This document shows positions 4,178 through 62,394 of a DNA stretch of 64,000 nt, in pieces. The notes beneath the pieces are model-generated. The model made no database searches, had not been told where the DNA came from, and saw only the letters and a program-made list of their open reading frames with translations. Every line of letters begins with the position of its first letter. Within the stretch, counting starts at the first letter, position 1. Source of the stretch: Bacteroidales bacterium UBA6680 (GTDB lineage: Bacteria > Bacteroidota > Bacteroidia > Bacteroidales > UBA6680); the NCBI GenBank assembly GCA_002454955.1, contig DKJY01000045.1, positions 42,282 through 106,281 of the forward strand, read 5' to 3'. The translations under genes and the position numbers were made by a program.

Positions 4178-6244
4178 ATGAAGAAAATAGTATATATGAT
4201 ATTCATTATAGCAATAACGCTTAACATATCTGGTCAGATACCAAATAAAATTAAATTTCAGGCCATTGCGAGAGATATTAATGGTCAGCCTATGATTAAC
4301 CAACAGGTATCTGTAAAGATAAAGATAAGAACAGGTTATATGGATGGTAGTATTGTATATTCAGAAAGTCATGATGCAATATCGAACTCAACAGGCATTA
4401 TAAATCTTAACATTGGCGAAGGTGTTGGTATTAGTGGAAATCTTATTAGTATTGATTGGCTTGGGAGTAATCACTTTATTGATGTTACAATAAATGGTAC
4501 ATCAGTTGGGGTTTCTCAAATAATGGCCGTTCCGTTTGCAATGCATGCAGAAGTAACTGAAGAGGTTGATAAGATTGATTATGAAAACGTAACCAACAAA
4601 CCGGATATACCTTCTGATATAAGCCAACTAACCGATTTTTCAACAAAGATATTTGATGCTGATTATAATAAACTGAGAAATACCCCTGCTTTCTCTGGCA
4701 GCTACAAAGATCTGGTTAATACTCCAGAGATAAATACAAGTTTTAATAACCTTACAGATAACACAAGCATTTTAGCTAAAATAGATTTTTACTCGCTATT
4801 AAACAGACCAACATTCTCATCAAACAGTTATAATGACCTAACAAACAAACCAGATATTAAAACAAAAGTTAACCAACTTACAGATACCGACAACAAAGTA
4901 TTTAGTGGTAGTTACAATGATCTAAAGAATAAACCATTTATATTCTCTGGTAAATATATTGATCTTAAAAACAAACCAGTAATTCCTGTTCAGATATCAG
5001 AGTTTACAGACAATAGTAAGAAGCTAAAGAGTGTAAAGTTTGCTGATATTAATCCAACTGTAAATCTGTTTGACGGTAACTACAATAGCCTAACAGACAA
5101 ACCTGCTATACCAATTGACATCAAAAATTTAACAGATAATTCTAATCTGATTTTTGATGGTAGTTATAACAATCTTACCGAGAAGCCAACATTTATATCT
5201 AACAATTACAACGACTTATCTGAAAAACCAATTATTCCGAAAGATGTAAACCTCTTGACTGACAAAAACAATATGTTAACAAATCTCAAATATTCAAACA
5301 TTAGCAACACACCAACATTACCTACTAAATTAAGTGAACTTACTAAAGATATATCGTTTATTGATACAGAGACCGACGGAAGCATAACTAATGAGCTTCA
5401 GAATATTAATCAGGTATTAAATAAAGGCTCCAATGCATCCGGAAATAGAATAAGCAACCTGAAAGATCCGACCGGAACCAACGATATTGCAACGAAGCTC
5501 TATATTGATGCTCTGGAAGCCAGATATGAAGCTTTGAAGAAGAGGGTTGACAAATATTATTCCGGAACAGGCATTGAAGTCCTGATAAATAAGGGAAAAA
5601 CCATTGCTGAAATAAAAGCAATTGGTCTTGTCATAAACAAGAGTGAGGGATCTTCGAATAATCAGGAAGGCGATAGTTTTGATTGGATAGGAATAGGTGA
5701 TCAGATTTGGATGTCTAAGAACATTGGTGTTCAGAAATTTGCCAATAACTCCAATATTCCTTATGGTCCAACAACCACAGGTACAGATATCTCTAATAAT
5801 TCGCCAGAGACATTTCAATTTGAGTATAATAACTCTAACAACGAAGAGTCATTAGGAAGGTTATATACATGGAATGTTGTATCTGATAGCAAAAACGTTT
5901 GCCCTACAGGATGGAGAGTACCAACACTTACTGACTGGAATCAGCTTGTAGCATTTATGAATACAGAGCACGGTGGTACACCAATAGGGAATGCCTTAAA
6001 ATCAAAAGATATGTGGGCTACAACAAATGGATTAGATGTTGTTAAACTTAGAATAATACCTGCAGGAATAAGAGAAGCTACCGGAGGGTTTAATGGTGCT
6101 GACGGTGAGTTTACCAGAATATGGTTAAATACTGAAGATTCAGGTAAAGGTAAATATATTGAGCTACGAAAAAACATTTCAAATGTAGTAAACGGAACAG
6201 CAAACAAAAATGATTCATACTCTGTAAGATGTATAAAAGAGTAA
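4178..6244 (+). CDS. paralogous surface protein: signal peptide, same N-terminal domain, tail-fibre-like repeats, C-terminal FISUMP domain
   Basis: 688 aa, starting 20 bp after the previous gene. It shares IPNKIKFQAIARDINGQ...IMAVPFAM, about 12 (D/S/N)YNxLxxKP repeats, TETDGSITNELQN...LKDPTGTNDIATKLYID, and WMSKNIGV..CPTGWRVPT..YSVRCIKE. Confidence 0.75.
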   Translation: MKKIVYMIFIIAITLNISGQIPNKIKFQAIARDINGQPMINQQVSVKIKIRTGYMDGSIVYSESHDAISNSTGIINLNIGEGVGISGNLISIDWLGSNHFIDVTINGTSVGVSQIMAVPFAMHAEVTEEVDKIDYENVTNKPDIPSDISQLTDFSTKIFDADYNKLRNTPAFSGSYKDLVNTPEINTSFNNLTDNTSILAKIDFYSLLNRPTFSSNSYNDLTNKPDIKTKVNQLTDTDNKVFSGSYNDLKNKPFIFSGKYIDLKNKPVIPVQISEFTDNSKKLKSVKFADINPTVNLFDGNYNSLTDKPAIPIDIKNLTDNSNLIFDGSYNNLTEKPTFISNNYNDLSEKPIIPKDVNLLTDKNNMLTNLKYSNISNTPTLPTKLSELTKDISFIDTETDGSITNELQNINQVLNKGSNASGNRISNLKDPTGTNDIATKLYIDALEARYEALKKRVDKYYSGTGIEVLINKGKTIAEIKAIGLVINKSEGSSNNQEGDSFDWIGIGDQIWMSKNIGVQKFANNSNIPYGPTTTGTDISNNSPETFQFEYNNSNNEESLGRLYTWNVVSDSKNVCPTGWRVPTLTDWNQLVAFMNTEHGGTPIGNALKSKDMWATTNGLDVVKLRIIPAGIREATGGFNGADGEFTRIWLNTEDSGKGKYIELRKNISNVVNGTANKNDSYSVRCIKE
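4574..5341 (+). repeat. in-frame coding tandem repeats (YNxLxNKP / LTDN modules), about 12 copies
   Basis: aa 133-388 of the 688-aa protein: DYENVTNKP, DYNKLRNTP, SYKDLVNTP, SYNDLTNKP, SYNDLKNKP, KYIDLKNKP, NYNSLTDKP, SYNNLTEKP, NYNDLSEKP and others. Confidence 0.8.
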
Positions 6245-7396: not shown

Positions 7397-8497
7397 ATGA
7401 GAATAGTATTAGTTATACAAATAGTTCTGTTCGTTTTTATACAAAATATTAATGCGCAGGATAACACAAACAAATACAGCGGTATTGATGAGTATGTAAG
7501 TACAATTAAATATTCAAACAGAACCTCTGTAAAAAAGCTGGCTCAGATAATTACAAAAAAATCTGAAACTAATGAGGAGAAAGTAAGGGCTATATTTTAC
7601 TGGATTACACACAATATAAAATATAATATCAGAATAAGAACTATTGAAAGAGAGTACAGTGATAAAAATCAGATTATTAACGAGGTTTTAAAAAGTAGAA
7701 CTGGTGTATGCCAGCACTATGCAGAACTTTTCAATATACTCTGTAAGGAGTCCGGAATAAAATCTGTTGTAATAGAGGGGTATACTAAACAAAATAATCA
7801 AATATCTAAGTTAGGGCATGCCTGGAATGCAGTATACATAAATAGCAAATGGCTGTGTATAGATGCTACATGGGCTGCCGGATATTACAGAGGAAACAGA
7901 TATTACCAAATCTACAGAGATAAGTATTTTCTTGACAATCCAGATGAATTTATAACTAGCCATATGCCATTTGATCCAATCTGGCAATTTTCGGAATCAC
8001 CAATATCTGCCAGAACATTTGATAAAAACCTAAAACACCAAGATCACAAAACATCATTTAATTATAGAGTCACAATTGACGAATATCTTAATAGTAGTAA
8101 TCTTGAAAAATTAAAGTCAAAATACAACAGAATATACAACAATGATGTTACAAATAGCATTATTAAAAGACATCTTGAGTATACTGCATATAATATTGCA
8201 ACGGAGGAATACAATATTGCTGTTGGCAATTTTAACAAAGGAGTGAATATAAATAATAGTGTTGTTGAGATACTAAGATCTAAAAATGGAAGACCTGATG
8301 ATAATGATGTTAAACTAATTATTAATAAACTTACACAGGCTAAGAAACACTTTGTTATTGCGTCAGAGAATCTATATGATATATCTGTATATTCGCAAGA
8401 GATATACAGAACAAGTAAAAAGATGCAACGTGAGATTAACAGGATATTAAAAGATACAGATAAACAGATAAAACAGTATAAAGATTATTTAAGATAG
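7397..8497 (+). CDS. transglutaminase-like (cysteine protease fold) domain protein, secreted
   Basis: 366 aa with a signal peptide. A transglutaminase-core Cys-His-Asp pattern is present: RTGVCQHYAELF ... GHAWNAVYINSKWLCIDATW. Confidence 0.7.
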   Translation: MRIVLVIQIVLFVFIQNINAQDNTNKYSGIDEYVSTIKYSNRTSVKKLAQIITKKSETNEEKVRAIFYWITHNIKYNIRIRTIEREYSDKNQIINEVLKSRTGVCQHYAELFNILCKESGIKSVVIEGYTKQNNQISKLGHAWNAVYINSKWLCIDATWAAGYYRGNRYYQIYRDKYFLDNPDEFITSHMPFDPIWQFSESPISARTFDKNLKHQDHKTSFNYRVTIDEYLNSSNLEKLKSKYNRIYNNDVTNSIIKRHLEYTAYNIATEEYNIAVGNFNKGVNINNSVVEILRSKNGRPDDNDVKLIINKLTQAKKHFVIASENLYDISVYSQEIYRTSKKMQREINRILKDTDKQIKQYKDYLR

Positions 8498-38945: not shown

Positions 38946-40286
38946 TTAGCCATGATTATCAACTGATGCATCACTCTTATCAGTTATCAGTTCCTCATTA
39001 AAAGAGTTATTAAGTTCTGTACTATTATCAGTAGCAGTAGCCTCATCTAATCCATCACCTTCCGGAGTATCAGTATCCTTCTCCTCTGATACCTTACCGT
39101 TACGCTTAGAACGCATAAGACCATATGCCATAACCACACTTGAAACAATTATAACCATAAGCAGTACTCCTGAGTTAAACTCACTCACCTGAAACGATTC
39201 AGGTATTGCAAAGAATAACAGTACTGTGATAAGTCCGCGTGGTGCAATCATAAACATAGGATTTATATCCTTCTTAAAGAACAGTCTGAAAACAAGGTAT
39301 CTTACCCCAAAAAGTATCCCCAGAATAATTATACTAACAACCACAACCTGCCCGTTAAAGAGTGTTGCTAACGATATTGTTGTTCCGAATATTATAAAAA
39401 AGAACGTACGAACAACAAATGAACTCTCAAGCGTAACAAGTCTGAAATCCTTAAGGATACTATCAACGGCCTCCTCTTTTATATGCCACGCCAATTTTCC
39501 TCTAAAGAATATATGACGATTAGATAAGAGTAACCCAAATACAAGTATTATTATAAGTGATGATAGATGAAGTGTCTTTCCTATTGAATAAAGAAGCAAC
39601 AACACTGCAATAAGAAGAAACAGTTTTACCTCTGTTTTTATATTCTGAAACAGAAATACAAGCCCATAACTTATTGCAACAGCCAGTGCTACAGTAATTA
39701 TTATTGTAAATACAACATTAAAACTAACCGATGCAACACCCGATGATTCTGCATGTTGTATCAAAAAGTAAAAGAACATAATCCCAAATATATCAGAGAA
39801 AGTACTCTCATATATCATAAACTCCTTTTTATACTCAGACAGTTCATTTACACTTGGTATTACAATAGCACTACTTATAATCGACAGCGGAATAGCGTAA
39901 ATAAGAGATGTATAGTAATCAGCATCAATATACATCTGTATTACATATGCAATAACAAACGCATTAATCATTAACGATATAAGTGCAATAGAGAACGATT
40001 TAATGATCAGTCCCCGTTTATCACGCGTAAGTTTAAGATCCAGAGCAGCTTCCAGTACAATCATTATTAGTCCTATTATACCCAATATCTCAAGCACAGA
40101 AAAAAAGTCAATCTCCTCTGACATTCCTGTAGCACTTATAAGATAACGTATACCAATACCCGTTGTAATAAGCATTAATACACTTGGCACTCCAGTTCTT
40201 TTAGAGATAATATTAAACAGGTACGAAACTATAAGTATAACTGAAACAGCTATAATAAAGCCATAAGATTGAAAAATATTCATCAA
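38946..40286 (-). CDS. cation:proton antiporter (Na+/H+ exchanger family) with acidic C-terminal tail
   Basis: 446 aa with about 11-12 TM segments, typical CPA-family length and hydropathy. The family call is by eye only. Confidence 0.7.
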   Translation of the reverse strand: MMNIFQSYGFIIAVSVILIVSYLFNIISKRTGVPSVLMLITTGIGIRYLISATGMSEEIDFFSVLEILGIIGLIMIVLEAALDLKLTRDKRGLIIKSFSIALISLMINAFVIAYVIQMYIDADYYTSLIYAIPLSIISSAIVIPSVNELSEYKKEFMIYESTFSDIFGIMFFYFLIQHAESSGVASVSFNVVFTIIITVALAVAISYGLVFLFQNIKTEVKLFLLIAVLLLLYSIGKTLHLSSLIIILVFGLLLSNRHIFFRGKLAWHIKEEAVDSILKDFRLVTLESSFVVRTFFFIIFGTTISLATLFNGQVVVVSIIILGILFGVRYLVFRLFFKKDINPMFMIAPRGLITVLLFFAIPESFQVSEFNSGVLLMVIIVSSVVMAYGLMRSKRNGKVSEEKDTDTPEGDGLDEATATDNSTELNNSFNEELITDKSDASVDNHG

Positions 40287-40640
40287 TAATTATATTTGTT
40301 GTTTTGCTAAAGATAAAATAATAATTGCTACTTAGAGGTATCTCATAAAACAAAAAAATAGTATATCCGTTATAATAATCTGTAACACAATATCAATTAA
40401 CAAACCTTGTATTAAAAGATTATCTCGCAATTAGCTGTGGTAAAATAAATATACAATCTGTTCATCATATGATATAGCTATACCTTATAACAACACAAAC
40501 ACAATTTAAGAATAAATACTAAATTTAGCAGACAGATAATTTCTGTTGGTGCGTATAATTGCTATAATCTTAGTTCCGTAATACATATAGCGCTTATATT
40601 AAACTACTAAGAATCTAATCTGTAATTTACAAAGCTTTTG

Positions 40641-41378
40641 GCAACGACTTTTATATTATTCTTTCCTGAATAACCATGTCATCAACTACCTTTGATTTAA
40701 TCGCTCAGAAGTAATAGTACTATCAACTACCTTTTATTTAATCTCGTGGAAGTAATCATTTTGTCGATTACTCTTGATTTAACAACCCATAAATAATTGT
40801 TTTGTCAGCTACTTTTATATTATTCCTTCATTAATAACTATATCATCAACTACCTTTGATTTAATCACTCAGGAGTAATTGTACTATCAACTACTTTTTG
40901 TTTAATATTTTGTAAAAAATCATTTTATCGGTTACTCTTGATTTAATAACTCAGAAATAATTGTTTTGTCAGTTACTTTTATATTATTCCTTCATGAATA
41001 ACTATATCATCAACTACTTTTGATTTAATTGCTCAGGAGTAATTATAATATCAACTACTTTTTGTTTAACATTATGGGAAAAATCATTTTGTCAGTTACT
41101 CTTGATTTAATAACCCAGAAATAATTGTTTTGTCAGTTACTTTTATATTATTCCTTCATTAATAACTATATCATCAACTACTTTTGATTTAATCGCTCAG
41201 AAGTAATAATACTATCAACTACCTTTTGTTTAATCTCGTGGAAGTAATCATTTTGTCGATTACTCTTGATTTAATAACCCAGAAATAATTGTTTTGTCAG
41301 TTACTTTCATATTATTTCTTTATGAATAACAATATCATCAACTACTTTTTGTTTAACCCTTGAATATTAACGATTCTC
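40641..41378. repeat. noncoding tandem array: 18 units of exactly 41 bp, organised as a 164-bp higher-order repeat (4 unit types) x ~4.4
   Basis: Unit starts are at 40682, 40723, 40764, 40805 ... 41338, every 41 bp with no exceptions. The core is TCARYTACYTTTKRTTTAAY. The first (40641) and last (41338) units are degenerate. Stops occur in all six frames. Confidence 0.92.
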
Positions 41379-41549
41379 ACAACAAGAGATTCTATTTCTA
41401 GTATTCTGTGTATATATACATGTCTCTTTTTGTCAAGTATTATCCTTTTTTAATAACTTTATCATATAAACAATTGGTCTCAACTCAATACACTATCAAC
41501 TTTACTAATAGTATATGAGTTACGACTTATAAATATAAAAACATACACC

Positions 41550-42242
41550 ATGAATATTATTATAACCGGAGCTTCAAGAGGTATAGGTTTAGAGATGGTA
41601 AAGCACTTTGCCGCTAATAAAGAGAACAGAGTGGTAGCTGTATCAAGAAACATAAAACCATTAGAGGATATAAGTAAAAACAACAATGTATATCCAATAT
41701 CACTTGATCTTACAGCACTGATTAAAGATGAAACTATCTTATCCTCTTTTGTATCTGAAATATTCTCAAAGACCGATATAATCATTAATAATGCAGGATA
41801 TCTGAAAGCAGAAAATTTTGTTAGTTCTGATGTAAACAGTGCTATTGAGATGTTTAATGTTAATTACTTTGGTCTTTCGCAAGTGATAAAAACCATGTAT
41901 GAGTCGCTTAAGCAGGCTGATAATCCGCACATTGTAAACATAAGTAGCATGGGTGGCTTTCAGGGTAGTGCAAAATTTGCCGGATTATCTCACTACTCTG
42001 CATCAAAAGCAGCTGTAGTCTCTTTAACAGAGGTGCTTGCAGAGGAGTTTAAGAAGGATAATATTAAGGTTAATGCTCTTGCTTTGGGTGCTGTTGAAAC
42101 AGAGATGCTTAATGAAGCTTTTCCCGGATATAAAGCTCCGATTTGTGCTAAAGATATGGCCGCATTCATATGTAACTTTGCACAAGAGACGCACAGATAT
42201 ATAAATGGTAAGGTTGTACCTGTATCATTAAGTACGCCATAG
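41550..42242 (+). CDS. SDR family oxidoreductase
   Basis: 230 aa with TGASRGIG cofactor motif, NNAG, and the S...YSASK catalytic motif. Confidence 0.87.
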   Translation: MNIIITGASRGIGLEMVKHFAANKENRVVAVSRNIKPLEDISKNNNVYPISLDLTALIKDETILSSFVSEIFSKTDIIINNAGYLKAENFVSSDVNSAIEMFNVNYFGLSQVIKTMYESLKQADNPHIVNISSMGGFQGSAKFAGLSHYSASKAAVVSLTEVLAEEFKKDNIKVNALALGAVETEMLNEAFPGYKAPICAKDMAAFICNFAQETHRYINGKVVPVSLSTP

Positions 42243-42472: not shown

Positions 42473-43543
42473 ATGTATAATAGAGTATTAGTTGGTGTAT
42501 TGCTTACTGCTACACTTATTGTGGCTGGCTGTGGTAATAACAACAAAGGAAGTAAAGAACTTATCAGAAAAGTAAAAGTAGCTGAGGTTACTAAAACATC
42601 ACCCGAACTAACAAAAGAGTTTTCAGGTATTATTAAGGAGGCTAAAGAGGTTAATCTGGCATTCAGAGTTGCCGGGAAAATTGAGAAGATTCTTGTAAAA
42701 GAGGGTGATTATGTAAAAAAGGGCGATCTTATTGCAATGATTGATCCACGTGATTATGAGGTTCAGGCTGCTGTGGCAAAGGCTCAGTATGAACAGGTAA
42801 AAGCTGAAGCTTCGCGTGTTAACGAGCTATATAACAGAAAAAGTATTGCCGAAAATGACTACGACAAAGCTGTTGCGGGCGAGAAGATGTTAAGCTCAAA
42901 GCTTAAACATGCAAACGATCAGTTAAATGACACCAAACTGTATGCCCCATTCTCGGGTTATATACAGAACATTAATTACGATAATGGCGAGATGATAAAT
43001 ACCGGGTTTACGCTTGCTACAATAATAAATGTTGAGCACTATAGTGTTGAGGTAGATATACCGGCATCGTTATTTATCAAGAAAGATAAATTTGTATCGT
43101 TTGCATGTCAGCAATCAATGATTGGTAATAAGGAGTTTCCTCTCAGTTTTGTTTCATTCAATAAAAAGGCAAATAGCAATCAGCTATATCGATTATACTT
43201 CAGATTAGATCCTAAAAAGGATAAGAGACTTGCCCCAGGTATGGATGTTAAGGTTACAATAAACTATCAAAATGGTTCAAACAACCATGTTATGGTACCT
43301 ATAAATGCCATTTTTAACAGAGAGGGAAAATCGTTTGTATGGTTATATAGTAAGGATACCAGAACAGTTACATCAAAACAGGTTATAGTTGACGGACTTG
43401 CGGGTAAAGGATTTGCAAACATAAAATCTGGTTTAAACGGTACAGAAGTAATTGTTGTTGCCGGTGTAAACATACTTAAAGAGAATCAGAGAGTCGATAT
43501 CCTTTCAAACACGTCTGACACTAATGTTGGAGGGCTCTTGTAA
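42473..43543 (+). CDS. efflux RND transporter periplasmic adaptor subunit
   Basis: 356 aa with lipoprotein signal (VAGC). It has lipoyl/hairpin/beta-barrel architecture (VKKGDLIAMIDPRDYEVQ..., LYAPFSGYI). Confidence 0.85.
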   Translation: MYNRVLVGVLLTATLIVAGCGNNNKGSKELIRKVKVAEVTKTSPELTKEFSGIIKEAKEVNLAFRVAGKIEKILVKEGDYVKKGDLIAMIDPRDYEVQAAVAKAQYEQVKAEASRVNELYNRKSIAENDYDKAVAGEKMLSSKLKHANDQLNDTKLYAPFSGYIQNINYDNGEMINTGFTLATIINVEHYSVEVDIPASLFIKKDKFVSFACQQSMIGNKEFPLSFVSFNKKANSNQLYRLYFRLDPKKDKRLAPGMDVKVTINYQNGSNNHVMVPINAIFNREGKSFVWLYSKDTRTVTSKQVIVDGLAGKGFANIKSGLNGTEVIVVAGVNILKENQRVDILSNTSDTNVGGLL

Positions 43544-46500
43544 TGCATATTTCTGAATTATCGTTTAAACGAAGAGCTCTGTTTAACTTCCTGCTCTTCT
43601 GCATTATTGTTGGCGGCATTCTATCGTTTAACACAATCAGTAAACTTGAGGATCCTGAGATAGTTATAATGCAAAGTAAGGTGGTTACTATATATCCGGG
43701 TGCCTCTGCGCACGAGGTAGAGATGCAGGTAACCGATATTCTTGAGAACGAGATTAGTGCTCTTGCTGATTTAAATCTTATAAAATCACAATCGGCTGCA
43801 AACGTATCTATAATTGATGTAGAGTTAGAGATGACCGTTCCGCAAGAGGAGATAGAGCAACGGTGGGAGTTTCTGAGACGCAAAATAAGTTATGCTATCT
43901 CTAAACTACCTGAAGGGTGTCAAGAGCCATCAGTAATAGATGATTTTGGCGATGTGTATGGTATGTTCTATGCCATGACGGGTGATGGATACTCATATAA
44001 AGAGATGAATGATTACGCCGACTATGTTAAGAGAGAGATGCTTGAGATAGATGGTGTAAGCAAAGTTCAGATATACGGAGAGCAGTCTCCTACTGTAGAT
44101 ATTACGCTTAGTACAGAAAAAATGTCGGAGATGGGACTGTTCCCTATGCAGGTTATATCTGCTATTCAAGGGCAGAATAAAACAGTGTACTCTGGTGCTC
44201 TGCAAACAGGTAATAACAAGATTAAGGTAAACGTAAGCGATAAGTTAACCAGTATTGACGACCTCCGAAACCTTATTATTCACGGAGCAAATGGCGATCA
44301 GTTTCATCTATCGGATATTGCTACCGTTGAACATGCCTATAAAACACCTTTGAAGAATACAATGTTTCTGAATAATAAAAAGGCTCTGGGTATCTCAATA
44401 TCAATGGAGTCAGGAGAGAATATTGTTGCATTAGGTAGTAAAGTAGAGAAAAAACTAGAAGAGTTAAAGAGAGATATACCTGTAGGACTTGAGTTTGATA
44501 AGGTATTCTTTCAGCCAGAAAAGGTGTCTAAATCAATTGGTGGATTTATGATTAACCTTATTGCTTCTGTTATTATTGTAGCTCTTGTACTTATGATTAC
44601 AATGGGATTACGAAGCGGATTAATAATTGGTGCAGGACTAGTTCTTACCATACTGGCAACATTCCCTATCCTGTTATCTACCGGAGGTACATTACAGAGA
44701 ATATCATTAGGTGCTTTTATTGTAGCTATGGGTATGCTTGTAGATAATGCTATTGTTATTATAGATGGTATTATTGTTGACTTACAGAAGGGACGACGTA
44801 CCAAATCTACATTCACCAGAACAGCCAAACGTACATCTATGCCATTGCTAGGTGCAACAATTATTGCTGTTGCTGCATTCTTACCGGTGTTCCTCTCAAA
44901 AGATACTGCCGGAACATACACCAGAGATCTGTTTATTGTATTATGTATATCGCTATTGTTAAGCTGGTTACTTGCATTAACACAGGTTCCTCTATTTGCT
45001 GCACGTTACCTGAAAAAGAAGAAAAAGAGCGAAGATCCGCATACACGCAAAGAGTATCAGATAATAAAACGCGTTTTACACTTCTTTATGCAACATAAAA
45101 CAGCTACAGTGGTTGTTTCTGTAATACTTCTGGCAATATCGGGTTACAGCTTTAAATATGTAAAACAGACTTTCTTCCCTGATTTTGATTATAATCAGGT
45201 TTATATAGAGTATAAACTGCCTGAAGGGACATGTCCTGACAAAGTAAACCGCGATTTAAAAAGCATTACAGAACACTTTCTTAGCTACAAAGAGGTTGAG
45301 ATGGTTGTAGCAAGTCAGGGAATGACTCCAACAAGGTACTCTCTTGTAAGAGCTATTGGTGAGATGTCTGATAGTTACGGTGAGCTTATTGTAAATTTTG
45401 CCGACTATGAGACAATGATAAAGATGCGACCAGTATTAGCTGAATATCTGCACTCTAATTACCCAGATGCATATACACGTATCAGGAAGTACAATCTTTC
45501 TATAAAATCGTCGCATACTGTTGAGGTAGAGTTCTCTGGTCCAGATCCTGCTATCCTGCGAGACCTTAGCAAACAGGCAAGAGAGGTTATGGCAGCAAAT
45601 CCATATACAGATAAATACACAATTCAGGATAACTGGCAACCAATTGGTAAAGCCTTATATGCAAAGTACGATCAATCTGCAGCACGCAGGGTTGGTGCAA
45701 CACGTTTTGATGTAAGCAATGCAATACTTGCTGCAACCGATGGACTTCCTATCGGATATCTGCATCAGGGAGAGACCAAGTATGCTATAAATCTAAAAAC
45801 TGTAAACAGCAATGGATCAAAGATTGAGGATCTGAATGAGATGCCTGTCTGGAATATGATACCAAATGTATTTGCCGTTGATAAATCTACAGTTGAGGGC
45901 ATTGTAAATGGTTCTAAAACAGTTGAAGACGCTGCAAAAGAGATTATTAATCCGGTACCATTAAGTGCTGTTACAAAAGGCGTTGATATTGAGTGGGAAG
46001 AGAGCATTGTTCGCAGATCTAATGGCAAAAGAACGATACAGGCAGAGTGTGATCCTATTGACGGATATAGCCCTGCATTGGTAAGAGGATCTATAATGGA
46101 TGATATTGAGAATATTGAGTTGCCAGATGGATATAGCATGAAATGGATGGGCGAATATGACTTGCAAAGTACCGCTCTGTACAACATATTCAGATATCTG
46201 CCTATTGCAATAATACTTATTATTATAACACTTATACTTCTGTTCAACGACTATAAAAAGCCAATAATAATAATACTATGTATACCAATGGCTATAATTG
46301 GTATTGTACCGGGTTTAATTGTAACAGGAATGCCTTTTACGTTTATTGCAATCATAGGATCGCTTGGATTAATGGGAATGCTTATTAAGAACTCAATAGT
46401 ATTAATTGATGAAATAGGAAAGCAGATAAAGGAAGGAGCCAAACGATACGATGCTGTTATTAATGCAACAATATCAAGGGTACGTCCGGTAATAATGGCA

Positions 46501-46680
46501 TCCTTTACAACCATCTTAGGTATGCTACCACTATTCACTGATCCTATGTATAATAGCATGGCTGTAGCTGTTATAAGTGGTCTAATTGTAGGAACTCTTA
46601 TAACCCTGGTTTTTGTACCAATACTTTATGCTCTGTTCTTTGGGATATCAAAACAGGAATCTGTTGAGCATGCAAGGTAA
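43543..46680 (+). CDS. efflux RND transporter permease subunit (AcrB/HAE1-like)
   Basis: 1045 aa with a 12-TM, two-large-loop architecture. It has a TAATG stop/start overlap with the adaptor gene. Confidence 0.9.
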   Translation: MHISELSFKRRALFNFLLFCIIVGGILSFNTISKLEDPEIVIMQSKVVTIYPGASAHEVEMQVTDILENEISALADLNLIKSQSAANVSIIDVELEMTVPQEEIEQRWEFLRRKISYAISKLPEGCQEPSVIDDFGDVYGMFYAMTGDGYSYKEMNDYADYVKREMLEIDGVSKVQIYGEQSPTVDITLSTEKMSEMGLFPMQVISAIQGQNKTVYSGALQTGNNKIKVNVSDKLTSIDDLRNLIIHGANGDQFHLSDIATVEHAYKTPLKNTMFLNNKKALGISISMESGENIVALGSKVEKKLEELKRDIPVGLEFDKVFFQPEKVSKSIGGFMINLIASVIIVALVLMITMGLRSGLIIGAGLVLTILATFPILLSTGGTLQRISLGAFIVAMGMLVDNAIVIIDGIIVDLQKGRRTKSTFTRTAKRTSMPLLGATIIAVAAFLPVFLSKDTAGTYTRDLFIVLCISLLLSWLLALTQVPLFAARYLKKKKKSEDPHTRKEYQIIKRVLHFFMQHKTATVVVSVILLAISGYSFKYVKQTFFPDFDYNQVYIEYKLPEGTCPDKVNRDLKSITEHFLSYKEVEMVVASQGMTPTRYSLVRAIGEMSDSYGELIVNFADYETMIKMRPVLAEYLHSNYPDAYTRIRKYNLSIKSSHTVEVEFSGPDPAILRDLSKQAREVMAANPYTDKYTIQDNWQPIGKALYAKYDQSAARRVGATRFDVSNAILAATDGLPIGYLHQGETKYAINLKTVNSNGSKIEDLNEMPVWNMIPNVFAVDKSTVEGIVNGSKTVEDAAKEIINPVPLSAVTKGVDIEWEESIVRRSNGKRTIQAECDPIDGYSPALVRGSIMDDIENIELPDGYSMKWMGEYDLQSTALYNIFRYLPIAIILIIITLILLFNDYKKPIIIILCIPMAIIGIVPGLIVTGMPFTFIAIIGSLGLMGMLIKNSIVLIDEIGKQIKEGAKRYDAVINATISRVRPVIMASFTTILGMLPLFTDPMYNSMAVAVISGLIVGTLITLVFVPILYALFFGISKQESVEHAR

Positions 46681-46692
46681 TATCAGTTTAAT

Positions 46693-46784
46693 ATGAAACG
46701 AAGCATGAGAATGGTTATTCACACACACCGAGAATGATTATAATGCGAGTTCCATATGGCAAATGAAAAAACAATTATAAACAG
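46693..46784 (+). promoter_or_regulatory. conserved ~90-nt leader element, copy 2 (paralog of 34043-34130)
   Basis: This element fills almost the whole 104-bp gap between the RND pump and OMF genes. The shared blocks are those listed for copy 1, including 19 identical nt running into the start codon. Confidence 0.55.
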
Positions 46785-48194
46785 ATGAAAAAATTATATA
46801 TAATACTTGCTCTGCTACTGGTAATATTTAATACCAAAGCGCAGGAAGTTATCACACTTAAGCGATGTCGTGAGATGGCTGTTGCTACAAGTGAAGATAT
46901 AAAGATATCTAAGAAACAGATTGACAAAACTATTGCAGATAAAGCAGCAATGCGAACAATGTACCTGCCAAAATTGAGTGGTTCAGCTACAGGAATATAT
47001 GTAAAAGATGATATAAAAACAGATATGTATCTGCCTACATATGTGGTTAATCCTACTACAGGTAAGCTTGTACCAAACGTAACAATAAACCCGGCAACAG
47101 GTAAGCCGGTAATTGGACCTGACGGAAATCCTCTGTTTAATATGTATGCTATGCTTCCGCTTGAGATAAGTCTTAAAGGAGCATATATGGCAGGGGTAAA
47201 GATTGAGCAAGCCATATTTGCCGGAGGTAAAATAATTGCCGGAAATAAGATGGCTGCAATTGGTGTGCAGATGGCTAAATATAACGATGAGTTACAGCAG
47301 ATGAACACAATATACGAGGCCGATAATGCATACTGGTTATATGTCTCAGTAAATGAGAAGGTGAAACTTGCCAAAAAAGCATCGTTATTACTAAAAGCTT
47401 TGGTAAAGAGAGTAGAGAACAGCTATAATGCAGGTATGATAAATCGTAATGAGCTGCTAAAAGTAAAGGTTAAGTATAATAATTCGCTTCTGGATCTGCA
47501 GAAAGCAGAGAGCGGACAAGAGTTAACACGCATGTCGTTATGCAGAGTAACAGGGCTTGATTACAGTACAGATATTGTTGTAACGGATACAATAATTGAT
47601 ACAGACAAGAGTGTTATAAGCACGGCAGGCAATGAGAATATCACAGAACGTCCTGAATATAAAATGTTATCGGGCAATGTAGATTTAAAGAGACAGAATA
47701 TAAACCTTACACGCGGCGATTTTCTACCTACTGCTGGTATTGCGGCATCTTACAACCATATTGGAGGTATTAAGGTTACTGGTAAAGATTACACATCAAA
47801 CAATATGAATGTTATGGTTAGTGTAAAGGTTCCTCTTTTTCACTGGCGCGAAGGTAAACGCAAGGTTACATCAGCAAGAATTAATCATGATATCTCTACA
47901 TTTGAACTAGAGAAGAGTGTAAAGCTAATGAAACTAGAGGTTGAGCAGGCTAAATTAAACCTTAAAGATTCATATACACGTATTGAGATTGCCAAAAGTG
48001 CACTTATGCAAGCTGAAGAGAACCTAAGAGTGAGTACCGACAATTACGAGACAGGAATGGAGGTAATTACTGATCACCTTATGGCACAAACAGAGTGGCA
48101 GAAAGCTCATAGCGAACTAATTGATGCAAAAGTTGATTTCAAACTAAAAGAGTCAGCGTATCTAAAAGCTACAGCAAAACTGACAATAAAATAA
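46785..48194 (+). CDS. TolC family outer membrane efflux protein
   Basis: 469 aa with a signal peptide and two OEP repeats. It follows the adaptor and pump genes. Confidence 0.85.
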   Translation: MKKLYIILALLLVIFNTKAQEVITLKRCREMAVATSEDIKISKKQIDKTIADKAAMRTMYLPKLSGSATGIYVKDDIKTDMYLPTYVVNPTTGKLVPNVTINPATGKPVIGPDGNPLFNMYAMLPLEISLKGAYMAGVKIEQAIFAGGKIIAGNKMAAIGVQMAKYNDELQQMNTIYEADNAYWLYVSVNEKVKLAKKASLLLKALVKRVENSYNAGMINRNELLKVKVKYNNSLLDLQKAESGQELTRMSLCRVTGLDYSTDIVVTDTIIDTDKSVISTAGNENITERPEYKMLSGNVDLKRQNINLTRGDFLPTAGIAASYNHIGGIKVTGKDYTSNNMNVMVSVKVPLFHWREGKRKVTSARINHDISTFELEKSVKLMKLEVEQAKLNLKDSYTRIEIAKSALMQAEENLRVSTDNYETGMEVITDHLMAQTEWQKAHSELIDAKVDFKLKESAYLKATAKLTIK

Positions 48195-48213: not shown

Positions 48214-49260
48214 ATGAACAGTAAAGAGCTTAACTATGCAACAACATTAACATCATACAGTTTCAGATCAATTACTATACGTATAATATTTGTTGGTTTA
48301 CTAGGACTTCTTTTCCTGCTATTCTCTTTAAGTTTTGCACAAGATTCTGAGCTGAATATTTACAGCATAGAATTAATTGAGTATATAAGAATAATTGCAG
48401 CGTATATAGTCTGCTCAGAATGCAACGTTCTGTTAGACAATATATCAGAGAAGTACTTACCTATACCTGGTAAGTTAAAAACCAGAATAATGGTTCATAT
48501 TCTGATGAATGCTATTCTTATATCGATACTATTTATCTACTTCAGAAATGTATACAACGGAACTATCGATTTTATAAATAATCCTGTTTCTAAATTGATG
48601 CTTGCTTTTAGTCTGTTATTTATTATAATGATTATTGTATTTGGTATCACAGTTAGGATTACCAGGAAGTGGTTAGATTCTGAAAGAGAGAATAATTCAC
48701 TTAAACGGGCAAAGCTTAAAAGCGATTATAATTCTTTACAGGATCAGCTTAATCCACACTTTTTGTTTAATAACCTGAGTGTTCTTAAATCAATGATTAT
48801 GTATAATCAGAAGGCTGCTGAGAGCTTTACGCAGAACTTTACCGATGTATACAGGTATGTTTTGCAAAGCAGAGACAGAACAACTGTACAGCTTATTGAC
48901 GAACTTGAGTTTATTGAGTCATATATAGGATTGCACAAGGAACGTTTAGGAGAACGTTTAAGTGTAAAGATGAGCATTGAGAATGGCCACTTAAATCAAC
49001 AGCTTCCACCTCTTTCGTTACAACTACTTGTTGAGAATGCAATAAAACACAACATTGCCTCAAAGAGTCTGCCACTACAAATTGACATATATACAAAATC
49101 AAATAATATTGTAGTAGCAAACAACTACAATCCAAAGGAATCGACATACTCAACAAAGAAGGGGATGAAAAATCTGAAAATGCGTTATAAACTTTTAACA
49201 CAAAAAGAGGTTATTATAACTCAAAACAGTAACTTTATTGTTGAATTACCATTGCTATGA
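48214..49260 (+). CDS. sensor histidine kinase, LytS/YehU type (His_kinase PF06580-like)
   Basis: 348 aa with an N-terminal TM bundle, followed by QLNPHFLFNNLSVLKSMI and LLVENAIKHN. Confidence 0.8.
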   Translation: MNSKELNYATTLTSYSFRSITIRIIFVGLLGLLFLLFSLSFAQDSELNIYSIELIEYIRIIAAYIVCSECNVLLDNISEKYLPIPGKLKTRIMVHILMNAILISILFIYFRNVYNGTIDFINNPVSKLMLAFSLLFIIMIIVFGITVRITRKWLDSERENNSLKRAKLKSDYNSLQDQLNPHFLFNNLSVLKSMIMYNQKAAESFTQNFTDVYRYVLQSRDRTTVQLIDELEFIESYIGLHKERLGERLSVKMSIENGHLNQQLPPLSLQLLVENAIKHNIASKSLPLQIDIYTKSNNIVVANNYNPKESTYSTKKGMKNLKMRYKLLTQKEVIITQNSNFIVELPLL

Positions 49261-50018
49261 GAATACTGATAATTGAAGACGAACAGCACAATATTGTGAT
49301 GCTGGAAGGATTAATAAAGATGTTAAGACCCGAATGGAACATTATAGATACACTTGATAGTGTTGAGGATAGTGTTATCTGGTTTAATAAAAACGACCAT
49401 CCGGATCTTATCTTCATGGATATTCAGCTAATAGATGGCGACTGTTTCTCTATATTTGAACAGGTTAAGATAGAGAGTTTGGTGATATTCACTACTGCTT
49501 ATGACAACTATGCAATAAAAGCTTTTAAGGTAAACAGTGTAGATTATCTCCTAAAACCAATAAAAGATAAAGATCTTGAAGAGGCGATACACAAATTTGA
49601 GAGGATTAAAAATGCAATAAGTAAAAATCGTGTAGACTACAATAAGGTTATAGGAATGATAAGATCTGATCATAAACAGTATAAAAACAGGTTTATGGTA
49701 TGCGGAAAGGACTCCTTTTTTAAGCTCAATACTACAGATATAGCAATGTTTACAAGCAGAAATAAAATAACTTTTGCTGTTACATACGACAATAAAGAGC
49801 ATGTTATTGACCATAGTCTTGATAAACTGGAACATGAACTTGATCCTGTAAACTTTTACCGTGCCAACAGACATACTATTCTTAACATAGACTCAATTGA
49901 CAAGTTTGAAAACTATTTTGGAGGCAAATTAATTGTAAAACTTATTCCCCCATTTAAAGAGACTATTACTATAAGCAGACTAAAAACCTCGGCATTTAAA
50001 ATATGGGTTGGCAAATAA
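49257..50018 (+). CDS. LytTR family response regulator
   Basis: 253 aa. The receiver domain reads MRILIIEDE...LIFMDIQL, with a C-terminal LytTR DNA-binding domain. It has a 4-bp overlap with the kinase gene. Confidence 0.88.
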   Translation: MRILIIEDEQHNIVMLEGLIKMLRPEWNIIDTLDSVEDSVIWFNKNDHPDLIFMDIQLIDGDCFSIFEQVKIESLVIFTTAYDNYAIKAFKVNSVDYLLKPIKDKDLEEAIHKFERIKNAISKNRVDYNKVIGMIRSDHKQYKNRFMVCGKDSFFKLNTTDIAMFTSRNKITFAVTYDNKEHVIDHSLDKLEHELDPVNFYRANRHTILNIDSIDKFENYFGGKLIVKLIPPFKETITISRLKTSAFKIWVGK

Positions 50019-51418: not shown

Positions 51419-51500
51419 GCGGATGTGGCGTAATTGGTAGCCGCGCTAGACTTAGGATCTAGTGCCGTGAGGCGTGGGGGTTCGAGTCCCTTCATCCGCA
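51419..51500 (+). tRNA. tRNA-Leu (anticodon UAG), copy 1
   Basis: I folded it by hand. Acceptor GCGGATG/CATCCGC, anticodon stem CTAGA/TCTAG with loop CTTAGGA (anticodon TAG), a long variable arm GCC-GTGA-GGC (type II), and T loop TTCGAGT. No encoded CCA. Confidence 0.93.
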
Positions 51501-51503
51501 CAA

Positions 51504-61450: not shown

Positions 61451-61599
61451 TAGCAAAAACAAGTTGATAATATTATAGTATTCATTAAATATTTCAGAAG
61501 TAAAAAACTGATTATCTGACTCTACAAAAAACACCTAAAAATAGTTTGTTATTTTGTTTGGATATTAGAATAAGAACCTACATATTTGCACACGCAATT

Positions 61600-61681
61600 G
61601 CGGATGTGGCGTAATTGGTAGCCGCGCTAGACTTAGGATCTAGTGCCGTGAGGCGTGGGGGTTCGAGTCCCTTCATCCGCA
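61600..61681 (+). tRNA. tRNA-Leu (anticodon UAG), copy 2
   Basis: 82 nt, identical by eye to copy 1. Confidence 0.93.
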
Positions 61682-61684
61682 CAA

Positions 61685-61718
61685 AAGAGCTGTTCAGATT
61701 TACTGAGCAGCTTTTTTT
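61685..61718 (+). terminator. terminator after tRNA-Leu copy 2
   Basis: agctgttcag-attta-ctgagcagct followed by ttttttt. Confidence 0.7.
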
Positions 61719-61954
61719 GTTTTATCAACTTAACTCTCTCTATCCATTAAAATATCCTGAAAAAATACAAGTACCACTCTATTATCAATCACATACAATA
61801 AACATTATACTAATTACAAATACCATTAATTACAAACATACTGTAACAGAACAACATCAGTAAACACGGGACATACAGCACTTTTTTTATTCAAAATAAA
61901 TCACAAAATTGTTTGGTAAATCAAATCATAAGCTACATATTTGCACACGCAATT

Positions 61955-62036
61955 GCGGATGTGGCGTAATTGGTAGCCGCGCTAGACTTAGGATCTAGTG
62001 CCGTGAGGCGTGGGGGTTCGAGTCCCTTCATCCGCA
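61955..62036 (+). tRNA. tRNA-Leu (anticodon UAG), copy 3
   Basis: 82 nt, identical by eye to copies 1 and 2. Confidence 0.93.
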
Positions 62037-62038
62037 CA

Positions 62039-62072
62039 AAGAGCTGTTCAGATTTACTGAACAGCTTTTTTT
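62039..62072 (+). terminator. terminator after tRNA-Leu copy 3
   Basis: agctgttcag-attta-ctgaacagct is a perfect 10-bp stem followed by ttttttt. Confidence 0.72.
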
Positions 62073-62337
62073 GTTTTTATCCTATTTTTGAAACAAAATT
62101 AAAACATGCCTACATTTTTAACATTTCATAACTACTCTTTGATATTTTGATACGCATCAAAATATATTCCTATGCGCGTGAAAAACATTTTTTATGCGCA
62201 TCATAATTTATCTTCACGGGCATCAAGCAATATATTTATAACTACAAAAAGAAAATCTACTAAGGTATAAATATTATTATTTGCCTTTTACCACAATATA
62301 AAATCAGATAATAACAGAACAATATTTTGATTATACA

Positions 62338-62370
62338 CAAAAAAAGAGCTCCGCAAAACGAAGCTCTTTG
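62338..62370 (-). terminator. rho-independent terminator of hutU
   Basis: aaagagct-(11 nt)-agctcttt is a perfect 8-bp stem. On the minus strand it is followed by a 7-nt T-run. Confidence 0.65.
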
Positions 62371-62394
62371 ATATATAATTTTTCAAATTCTCTC

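Follow-up and report, generated by a model that had tools for sequence, protein, structure and literature searches.

Intergenic minisatellites are a kind of element already known from bacteria, and include variable-number tandem repeats (VNTRs) of the mycobacterial interspersed repetitive unit (MIRU) type, the BrickBuilt elements of Porphyromonas gingivalis and the boxB modules of pneumococcal BOX elements. The tandem array analyzed here lies in a 64,000-nucleotide stretch of the uncultured Bacteroidales bacterium UBA6680 (contig DKJY01000045.1; the whole stretch, 64 kb, is referred to as the window), between divergently transcribed Na+/H+ exchanger and short-chain dehydrogenase/reductase (SDR) genes. 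It is gap-free at 40600-41362 and combines 41-bp units with a 164-bp higher-order period of four subtypes. Together with a leader it forms an extra segment that is specific to the species lineage of the window, has defined boundaries and is an orphan. On balance, the array is best read as a lineage-specific non-coding minisatellite that was inserted with its leader, grew by unequal recombination and is most likely without a dedicated function. Its appearance is that of a young orphan minisatellite, not of a conserved regulatory or replication element, and no evidence points to a new mechanism. The unusual feature is the clear 4 x 41 bp higher order, which resembles that of a miniature eukaryotic satellite.

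BrickBuilt (Klein et al. 2015, PMC4596501) is intergenic and up to 991 nt long, with its minisatellite placed between a leader and a tail. No other minisatellite of Bacteroidetes was found in the literature, and BrickBuilt may be taken as the closest described analogue of the segment. Both belong to Bacteroidales, are strictly intergenic and non-coding, reach up to ~1 kb, and place a leader (≤285 nt in BrickBuilt) before a spacer-less tandem repeat; some BrickBuilt copies are tail-less, and BrickBuilt repeat number varies between strains. BrickBuilt alone has a 23-nt unit without higher order, is present 19 times per genome, carries IS5-like terminal inverted repeats as well as a tail, and has shown promoter activity in measurements, whereas the segment described here has a 41-nt unit, a 164-nt higher order, a single known copy, and neither inverted repeats, tail nor sequence similarity to BrickBuilt. 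The original prediction, which was made from the letters of the stretch alone, had stated that no described Bacteroidota element of this architecture was known; this is to be qualified in view of BrickBuilt, which has a 23-nt unit, lacks higher order and is not homologous to the array. No paper joining 41-bp tandem repeats with Bacteroid* was found in the literature, nor any prokaryotic intergenic higher-order repeat.

Other systems are comparable in part. MIRU/VNTR loci of mycobacteria share tandem intergenic units (40-100 bp), presence that varies between close lineages, and change by slippage or unequal recombination, but are a dispersed family of ~40 loci, inside operons, with small open reading frames (ORFs) overlapping neighbouring genes; the present array is one orphan locus between divergent genes, without such ORF logic and with four cycling subtypes. 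Pneumococcal BOX (boxA-boxB(n)-boxC) is likewise modular and intergenic, with a 45-nt internal module in variable tandem number, but has >100 dispersed copies, defined terminal modules and stable RNA structures, none of which was seen for the array. Alpha satellite offers an architectural analogy only: nested periods, strict register, a homogenised centre with decayed edges, and monomers that are less alike (51-73%) than higher-order copies (84-96%) recur here, in a prokaryotic array of 0.7 kb, whereas alpha satellite is eukaryotic, extends over megabases and has a centromere role. Plasmid and phage iterons and partition centromeres resemble the array in their many same-orientation direct repeats, conserved core and AT-rich non-coding DNA. 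Iterons are 17-22 bp long with a spacing of about two turns, adjoin a rep or par gene and, at origins, accompany DnaA boxes and an unwinding element, whereas the array has none of these and a period of 41 bp.

The array and the empty site in relatives

Features of the locus are as follows (window coordinates, strand, description, basis).
38946..40283, minus strand, left-flanking gene for a Na+/H+ (cation:proton) exchanger, reading away from the array (Pfam PF00999, E=3e-22)
40284..40401, no strand, native exchanger-proximal spacer, ~91% identical to six relatives (MAFFT, blastn)
40390..40401, plus strand, left junction direct repeat AATATCAATTAA (alignment with relatives)
40402..40599, no strand, unique non-repeat leader of the extra segment, 198 nt (no homologue in searches, ORFs ≤32 aa)
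40600..40681, plus strand, degenerate edge units -1 (D-like, TAAACTAC core) and 0 (A-type, 8-11 mismatches) (position-specific scoring matrix, PSSM, of the unit)
40682..41337, plus strand, sixteen full units of 41 bp, arranged as B-C-D-A in each of four 164-bp copies, core TCRRYTACYYTT (TRF, row layout, PSSM)
41338..41362, plus strand, truncated final unit with C-type core TCAACTACTTTTTGTTTAAC, abutting native DNA, no tail (MAFFT)
41363..41374, plus strand, right junction direct repeat AATATTAACGAT (alignment with relatives)
41363..41549, no strand, native SDR-proximal spacer, 77-83% identical to relatives, conserved block CTTTTTTAATAACTTTATCATA.AAACAATTGG (MAFFT)
41550..42242, plus strand, SDR gene (adh_short), right flank (Pfam)
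42473-48194, RND efflux operon, 3' of the SDR gene (Pfam, gene tables)
48214-50018, PF06580 histidine kinase and LytTR response regulator pair, directly downstream of the RND efflux operon (Pfam, gene tables)

The periodicity was recovered by several approaches. TRF called 40647-41356 at a period of 164 x 4.3 copies (89% matches, 0% indels), with a second call in the region at a period of 41 x 15.3. When the region was laid out in 41-nt rows, the starts of the listed units (40682 ... 41338) were exactly 41 nt apart with zero slippage, reproducing the strict phase that had been predicted. Autocorrelation was ~0.61 at all multiples of 41, compared with a background of 0.32, and rose to 0.876, 0.849 and 0.858 at lags of 164, 328 and 492, respectively; the predicted 164-bp repeat of four types thus agreed with both TRF and the lag-164 identity. 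A pattern of two cores 41 bp apart matched 14 times vs 0 in 100 shuffles. The array had been described as 18 units; it is real, but its extent of 40600-41362 takes in one more degenerate unit, giving 19 in all (two decayed, sixteen full, one truncated). This extra unit (40600-40640) is in phase and lies at the 99.9th percentile of the unit PSSM null, with PSSM scores of -10.0 for unit -1, 21.9 for unit 0 and 31-50 for full units. Unit 17 carries a C-type core, not a B-type one, and is cut after ~25 nt, where native sequence resumes.

Within the unit, the contrast between a conserved 5' half and a variable 3' half that had been reported was recovered as a trend only (invariant positions 11/20 vs 5/21, Fisher p=0.058); positions 29, 31-33 and 37 in the 3' part are likewise invariant. 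The core-bearing sequence with cytosines at positions 2 and 8 is TCAACTACCTTTGATTTAAT. The plus strand of the array is rich in pyrimidines, giving a strand asymmetry, and the array is AT-rich DNA, in a genome of 34% GC.

The origin of the array was approached through a congeneric set of six assemblies (L018; L059/L060, NCBI GCA_025210735.1, 'MAG: Bacteroidales bacterium', a metagenome-assembled genome; and L061-L064), which are ~84% identical in nucleotides to the window over 13 collinear kb. The exchanger of GCA_025210735.1 is ~95% identical in amino acids to that of the window, whose 90% cluster includes 'MAG: Bacteroidales bacterium' proteins; the best matches beyond it are at 75%, 61%, and then ≤58%. 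From SbcCD through the exchanger, SDR, RND efflux operon and histidine kinase to the LytTR regulator, genes are arranged alike in the window and the six congeners. In the six congeners the exchanger-SDR spacer is 280-281 bp long and holds no array and nothing unit-like, and in more distant relatives (61% aa) the divergent pair is kept with an array-free spacer of 221 bp. The corresponding spacer in the window is the longest there; its reported, ORF-free length of 1263 nt becomes 1266 nt if the exchanger starts at ATG 40283, and a product of exactly 445 aa starting at that ATG is on record. The positions of the divergent genes that had been read from the sequence agreed with Pfam (Na_H_Exchanger, minus strand; adh_short, plus strand).

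MAFFT alignment of the window with L018 and L060-L064 placed native sequence up to 40401 and again from 41363. The difference is a segment of 961 bp (40402-41362), found only in the lineage of the window and comprising the 198-nt leader and 19 units. Gene order was otherwise identical to the relatives, with no gene co-acquired with the segment. The six relatives carry the junction sequence once (AATATTAACTAA), and an AATATYAAY... copy stands at each junction in the window; the native site AATATTAAC(TAA), single in the relatives, therefore has imperfect copies on both sides of the extra segment. No terminal inverted repeats were found at the ends of the insert, where the best inverted match scored 8.0 vs a shuffle mean of 8.4. 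Of the alternatives offered with the original prediction, a hypervariable satellite is the one that these data favour. The lineage of the window has the array and the six congeners do not; its units are head-to-tail and intergenic and their presence varies between close lineages, as in minisatellites and VNTRs. The definition of MITEs (miniature inverted-repeat transposable elements) fits in part: the segment is 961 bp, non-coding, with a leader and an internal tandem repeat, and the tail is missing.

Two ways in which the array could be spurious had been raised with the original prediction, namely an assembly artefact and the decayed remnant of a gene. The longest exact repeat inside the array is 48 nt and each of its 49-mers is unique, so a k=127 assembly and reads ≥100 nt can resolve it. 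Over 21 kb, a coral-metagenome contig assembled at k=127 matches the window with 100% identity. Every source is a metagenome assembly built from short reads. An independent Logan assembly at k=31 (run SRR5324917) breaks within the array from both sides, which is a practical warning for k=31 assemblies at this locus; its array-side ends, however, are 100% identical to the window. An assembly artefact is unlikely, given that the 49-mers are unique and that a second run repeats the array ends exactly. As for a gene remnant, the site holds no gene in the relatives, every frame is interrupted by stops, and neither 41 nor 164 is a multiple of 3. Artefact or remnant, taken as one explanation, is barely credible.

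Divergence, growth and origin of the segment

Divergence within the array is nested. Copies 1 and 4 of the 164-bp block differ by 4%, other 164-bp copies by 8.5-16%, and the subtypes of the 41-bp unit by 27-49% (51-73% identity). This nesting, together with the decayed edge units, is the signature of homogenisation by in-register unequal exchange. All subtype mismatch counts reported earlier were exact (B1/B4 2, C1/C4 1, D1/D4 2, B2/B3 5, C2/C3 5), and copy 1 vs copy 4 gave 5 mismatches in 123 nt, other copy pairs 12-19. A third tier of ~492 bp had been proposed on these counts. The partial copy 5 is not nearest to copy 2, unit A16 differing from A4, A8 and A12 at 6, 4 and 5 positions, respectively, so the likeness of copies 1 and 4 reflects a single late conversion or duplication, not a periodicity. 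Of the periods put forward for TRF, 41 and 164 were thus confirmed, and 492 was reduced to one near-identical copy pair. Recent substitutions were mostly transitions (20 transitions : 8 transversions) and clustered at G/C sites (18/45 vs 11/119 at A/T sites), the pattern expected under mutation pressure at a genomic GC content of 34%.

From these patterns and the empty site, we infer both the order of events and the lack of function. The leader and a short proto-array of 41-bp units would have entered or arisen at AATATTAAC(TAA), which now stands at both junctions. The 41-bp units would then have diverged to four subtypes, after which in-register unequal recombination or replication slippage may have multiplied a four-unit block of 164 bp to ~4.3 copies. 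Copy 4 would owe its near identity with copy 1 to one late conversion or duplication, and the edge units, outside homogenisation, would have decayed. Amplification by in-register exchange would explain the strict 41-bp phase and the lack of indels. Upstream of the exchanger the insertion left 118 bp of native DNA, and upstream of the SDR gene 187 bp; the exchanger promoter presumably lies within the native spacer at 40284..40401; both promoters would be able to survive the insertion, which would explain why the segment was tolerated. Its effect is most likely incidental, in that the divergent promoters are now ~1 kb apart and the added AT-rich DNA could bind nucleoid proteins.

If the minisatellite reading is true, the locus would be a clean, datable bacterial case of satellite-style evolution, with the empty ancestral site kept in sister species and with each stage on display: monomers that diverge, a four-monomer block that is amplified, edges that decay and a conversion that comes late. 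It would be of use in understanding the birth of repeat arrays in prokaryotic promoter regions, and the array could be used to mark a coral-associated Bacteroidales lineage at strain or species level. Greater weight would attach to it if the core bound a protein, or if more leader-plus-array copies made up a BrickBuilt-like mobile family.

Several points weigh against the minisatellite reading. The junction repeats are 9-12 bp long and resemble a target-site duplication, but they differ at 2/9 to 4/24 positions and could be coincidence (rough chance probability 0.05-0.1); for this reason any mechanism of insertion is putative. Instead of a gain in the window lineage, the relatives' ancestor may have undergone a deletion, because the outgroup spacer is unalignable. 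The array copy number comes from short-read metagenome assemblies. The core cytosines at positions 2 and 8 (TCnnnTAC) are invariant in all full units, and core C sites were polymorphic in 0/8 cases vs 18/37 (49%) of other G/C type-sites (p=0.014), which hints at constraint or at biased homogenisation.

The main rival for the origin of the segment is a non-autonomous mobile element of the BrickBuilt/BOX type. According to this explanation, a leader with an internal minisatellite transposed into AATATTAAC with a 9-12-bp target-site duplication, and the tail and outer inverted repeat were lost or decayed. A discrete 961-bp segment that is absent from six relatives, bracketed by sequence single in those relatives, and inserted without any gene would be expected of such an element. 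Layout, size, strictly intergenic position and host order (Bacteroidales) also agree with BrickBuilt, some copies of which retain the leader only (PMC4596501). Nevertheless, the ends lack terminal inverted repeats and score at the shuffle mean, no tail is seen because the array directly abuts native DNA, and the putative target duplicates are imperfect; a second copy is absent from the window and all collections searched, and neither the 23-nt unit nor the inverted repeats of BrickBuilt show any similarity to the segment. A mobile element is accordingly judged unlikely.

A native source for the units was also considered. The conserved native block TATTATCCTTTTTTAATAACTTTATCAT (window 41438-41467) resembles the 3' part of unit A (e.g. 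41146-41174) at 25/29 positions with one gap. This score was reached by 11/500 shuffles when the flank of the window was used, and was not significant with the sequence of the relative (z ~1.1), so derivation of the units from this block was set aside as a weak lead only. The block may have seeded the repeat, or the likeness may be coincidental in DNA so rich in AT. In the same native SDR-proximal spacer, adjoining the array end, a small slippage-type indel was observed at 41372-41395, where the window has 9-10 nt extra relative to the six relatives, flanked by a GATTCT direct repeat (GATTCTCACAACAAGAGATTCT).

Tests of function

Coding, RNA, curvature and origin features are lacking at the locus. 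The largest ORF in the exchanger-SDR spacer is 36 aa, with stops in every frame, in line with the earlier report of no ORF ≥60 aa and with periods that are not multiples of 3. Rfam 15 gave no covariance-model match over 40200-41650, even at E≤5, and matched only three tRNAs in the whole window. Fold z-scores were -2.1 and -1.5 for the array and +0.22 and -0.60 for the leader. A structured RNA in array or leader was rejected on these weak or null z-scores and the empty Rfam result. No transcription terminators were found at the array, and sigma-70-like sites in it were at shuffle level. Four exact Bacteroidota -7 boxes (TAnnTTTG) occur in the array and represent a single B-unit occurrence, amplified; across the window, the background of this box is 0.75 per kb and strand. 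As the TAnnTTTG boxes are without a -33 element at 17-23 nt, a reading as an array of Bacteroidota promoters was rejected.

These results bear on a transcribed repeat RNA, that is, a tandem small-RNA or CRISPR RNA-like precursor processed each 41 nt. The pyrimidine-rich plus strand with its strand asymmetry, the exact TAnnTTTG box in B units, which points to the SDR gene, and a local hairpin potential at C-to-D junctions (GTAATC-N8-GATTAC, read from sequence) would fit such an RNA. However, the hairpin is lost at A-to-B and B-to-C junctions, and the missing terminator, the boxes without a -33 partner, the empty Rfam search and the modest fold scores all speak against it. CRISPR arrays consist of identical repeats of ≥23 nt and unique spacers of similar length. 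The 'spacer' halves of the present array cycle through four types, none of them unique, its period of only 41 nt is below any CRISPR repeat-plus-spacer, and no Rfam CRISPR repeat matched. A transcribed repeat RNA is very improbable.

Replication features were sought in the same way. No TTATCCACA-like DnaA box (≤1 mismatch) was found in 40284-41549, and the window count equalled the shuffle expectation. There was no GC-skew switch at the locus, the skew tracking gene strand only, and no rep, par or dnaA gene beside the array, whose neighbours are Na_H_Exchanger, SbcCD-like, SDR and the RND efflux operon. An oriC or iterons were rejected for want of DnaA boxes, a skew switch and a rep gene.

Intrinsic curvature, which had been offered as one reading of the array, was evaluated with a wedge-model path. 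In this model, the end-to-end/contour ratio was 0.863 vs a window mean of 0.718, i.e. the array is predicted to be straighter than typical window DNA, and the bend per 31 bp was 17.5 degrees in the array vs 20.2. AA/TT power was low at the helical period, with 1.05 at 10.25 bp and 0.04 at 10.5 bp, vs 3.56 at 20.5 bp. Intrinsically curved DNA was rejected because this model does not predict curvature. The claim that all 18 cores face the same side of the helix did not hold either: the model twist is 3.89 turns per 41-bp unit, so that neighbouring cores are rotated by ~35-40 degrees and spiral through a full circle every 9-10 units.

There remains the reading as a protein-binding platform (iteron, centromere-like site, decoy or insulator), in which a host protein bound to TCnnnTAC(YYTT) each 41 bp would be organised or titrated between promoters. 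Its attractions are the 17 in-register cores and the two core cytosines, which are fixed throughout despite belonging to the site class, G/C, that is the variable one elsewhere (p=0.014). Recent polymorphisms are also sparse at positions that are invariant between subtypes (4/64 vs 25/100, p=0.003). After stratification by base, however, A/T sites showed no added constraint at 'conserved' positions (7% vs 11%, p=0.54), and conversion-driven homogenisation can mimic constraint. Strict phasing is expected from in-register unequal exchange of 164-bp blocks alone, with no selection needed. The array is missing in relatives that have the same regulators and neighbour genes, no partner gene arrived with it, the 12-nt core occurs elsewhere in the window just twice, both times within genes, and the cores lie off one helical face. 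The iteron-like or cooperative scaffold of the original prediction is therefore unsupported, with the array absent in relatives and neither a partner gene nor origin features (rep gene, DnaA boxes) at hand.

LytTR regulators were of interest in this context, as the histidine kinase and LytTR pair lies 7 kb downstream. A LytTR site consists of two 9-bp direct repeats with a 12-13-bp spacer and the consensus [TA][AC][CA]GTTN[AG][TG]. The core is loosely like this consensus (8/9 positions), a lead and not a test. Identity at lags of 20-22 was 0.25-0.33, i.e. background, and there is no ~21-bp sub-period as LytTR sites or iterons need. An array of LytTR sites was rejected, given one core per 41 bp and no 20-22-bp sub-period. 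The pair is also kept in array-less relatives, and for that reason its members are probably regulators of the RND pump and not tied to the repeat.

A protein-binding platform is improbable in this light. Slightly more doubtful still is its specific form as a recently arisen nucleoprotein platform, in which a host protein on TCnnnTAC would occupy nineteen sites 3.9 turns apart, and a left-handed filament would insulate, silence or titrate between the exchanger and SDR/RND-efflux promoters. If true, it would be a newly evolved regulatory satellite in a bacterium.

Searches for other copies and further observations

The search for further copies in the source genome covered the 64-kb window. Beyond it, IMG/VR, the JGI metagenome collection and 185,579 species-representative genomes were scanned with two degenerate cores 41 bp apart. 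In the window and the fetched loci, the 20-nt core, unit, 164-bp block and leader had no further copy, and neither the array nor any kin was found in the species genome, JGI metagenome and IMG/VR scans. Plasmid collections gave no match by blastn, and phage collections no relevant match (one marginal 59-nt hit at E=7e-3). The nhmmer and BLASTN comparison of a dispersed family with a single locus that was proposed with the original prediction thus came out without a second copy in the window, the fetched loci or public collections.

The scans returned many 41-bp arrays, several of them from Bacteroidales (Bacteroides sp. SIG134, Parabacteroides, Alistipes, Anaerolineales, Cytobacillus and others). 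These are not regarded as kin, because the scan catches by construction any 41-bp array with the 19-bit motif, and apart from that motif their units are of mixed make-up, one containing a palindrome and another a GC hairpin. In IMG/VR the core pair was found at 4 loci with a spacing of 39 bp, 1 at 40 bp, 2 at 41 bp, 8 at 42 bp and 0 at 43 bp; that it is no commoner at 41 bp than at neighbouring spacings supports rejecting a 41-bp array family. A cross-phylum family of 41-bp arrays sharing TCRRYTACYYTT was accordingly rejected, nhmmer profiles of the unit and the 164-bp block reaching a best E of 0.17 (0.49 Mb).

Some of the returned arrays were recorded in their own right. The MAG Bacteroides sp. 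SIG134 carries a different 41-bp array (TCAATTACTTTTCATCCGAAAAACAAAACGAAGACGTAAAA) at at least two loci (L006 7017-7290 and L012 ~7620-8000), one of them between divergent pectate-lyase-like and AlaX-like genes. Both SIG134 arrays finish in one variant unit (...CACTCGAAAA), a common end that suggests a dispersed array family in that gut Bacteroides genome; there is no similarity to the window unit beyond the 12-nt core required by the search. In an uncultured Parabacteroides sp. (L007 1334-1703), a 41-bp array with nested 82- and 124-bp periods has the palindrome GATATACTGTATATC in each unit, and is another higher-order 41-bp array in Bacteroidales, unrelated in sequence to that of the window. 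An IMG/VR contig (L028 ~5260-5430) has about four 41-bp units, and its unit recurs at the cut end of an ENA contig (L058, 7860-8016). These units contain an inverted repeat, TTGTCCAC-AAAAAAC-GTGGACAA, with arms resembling DnaA boxes, and the L028/L058 array may be a phage or plasmid origin or operator array.

Two further observations concern other genes. In the Logan assembly L018 (3253-7826), the outer-membrane factor and RND pump genes are each split into two ORFs, and both are intact in the window and the remaining relatives; the splits are either frameshift errors or real pseudogenes. The window also contains three tRNA-Leu(TAG) genes with identical Rfam scores (51419-51501, 61600-61682 and 61955-62037); its second-longest spacer (61451-62394) holds two of them, separated by 270 bp.

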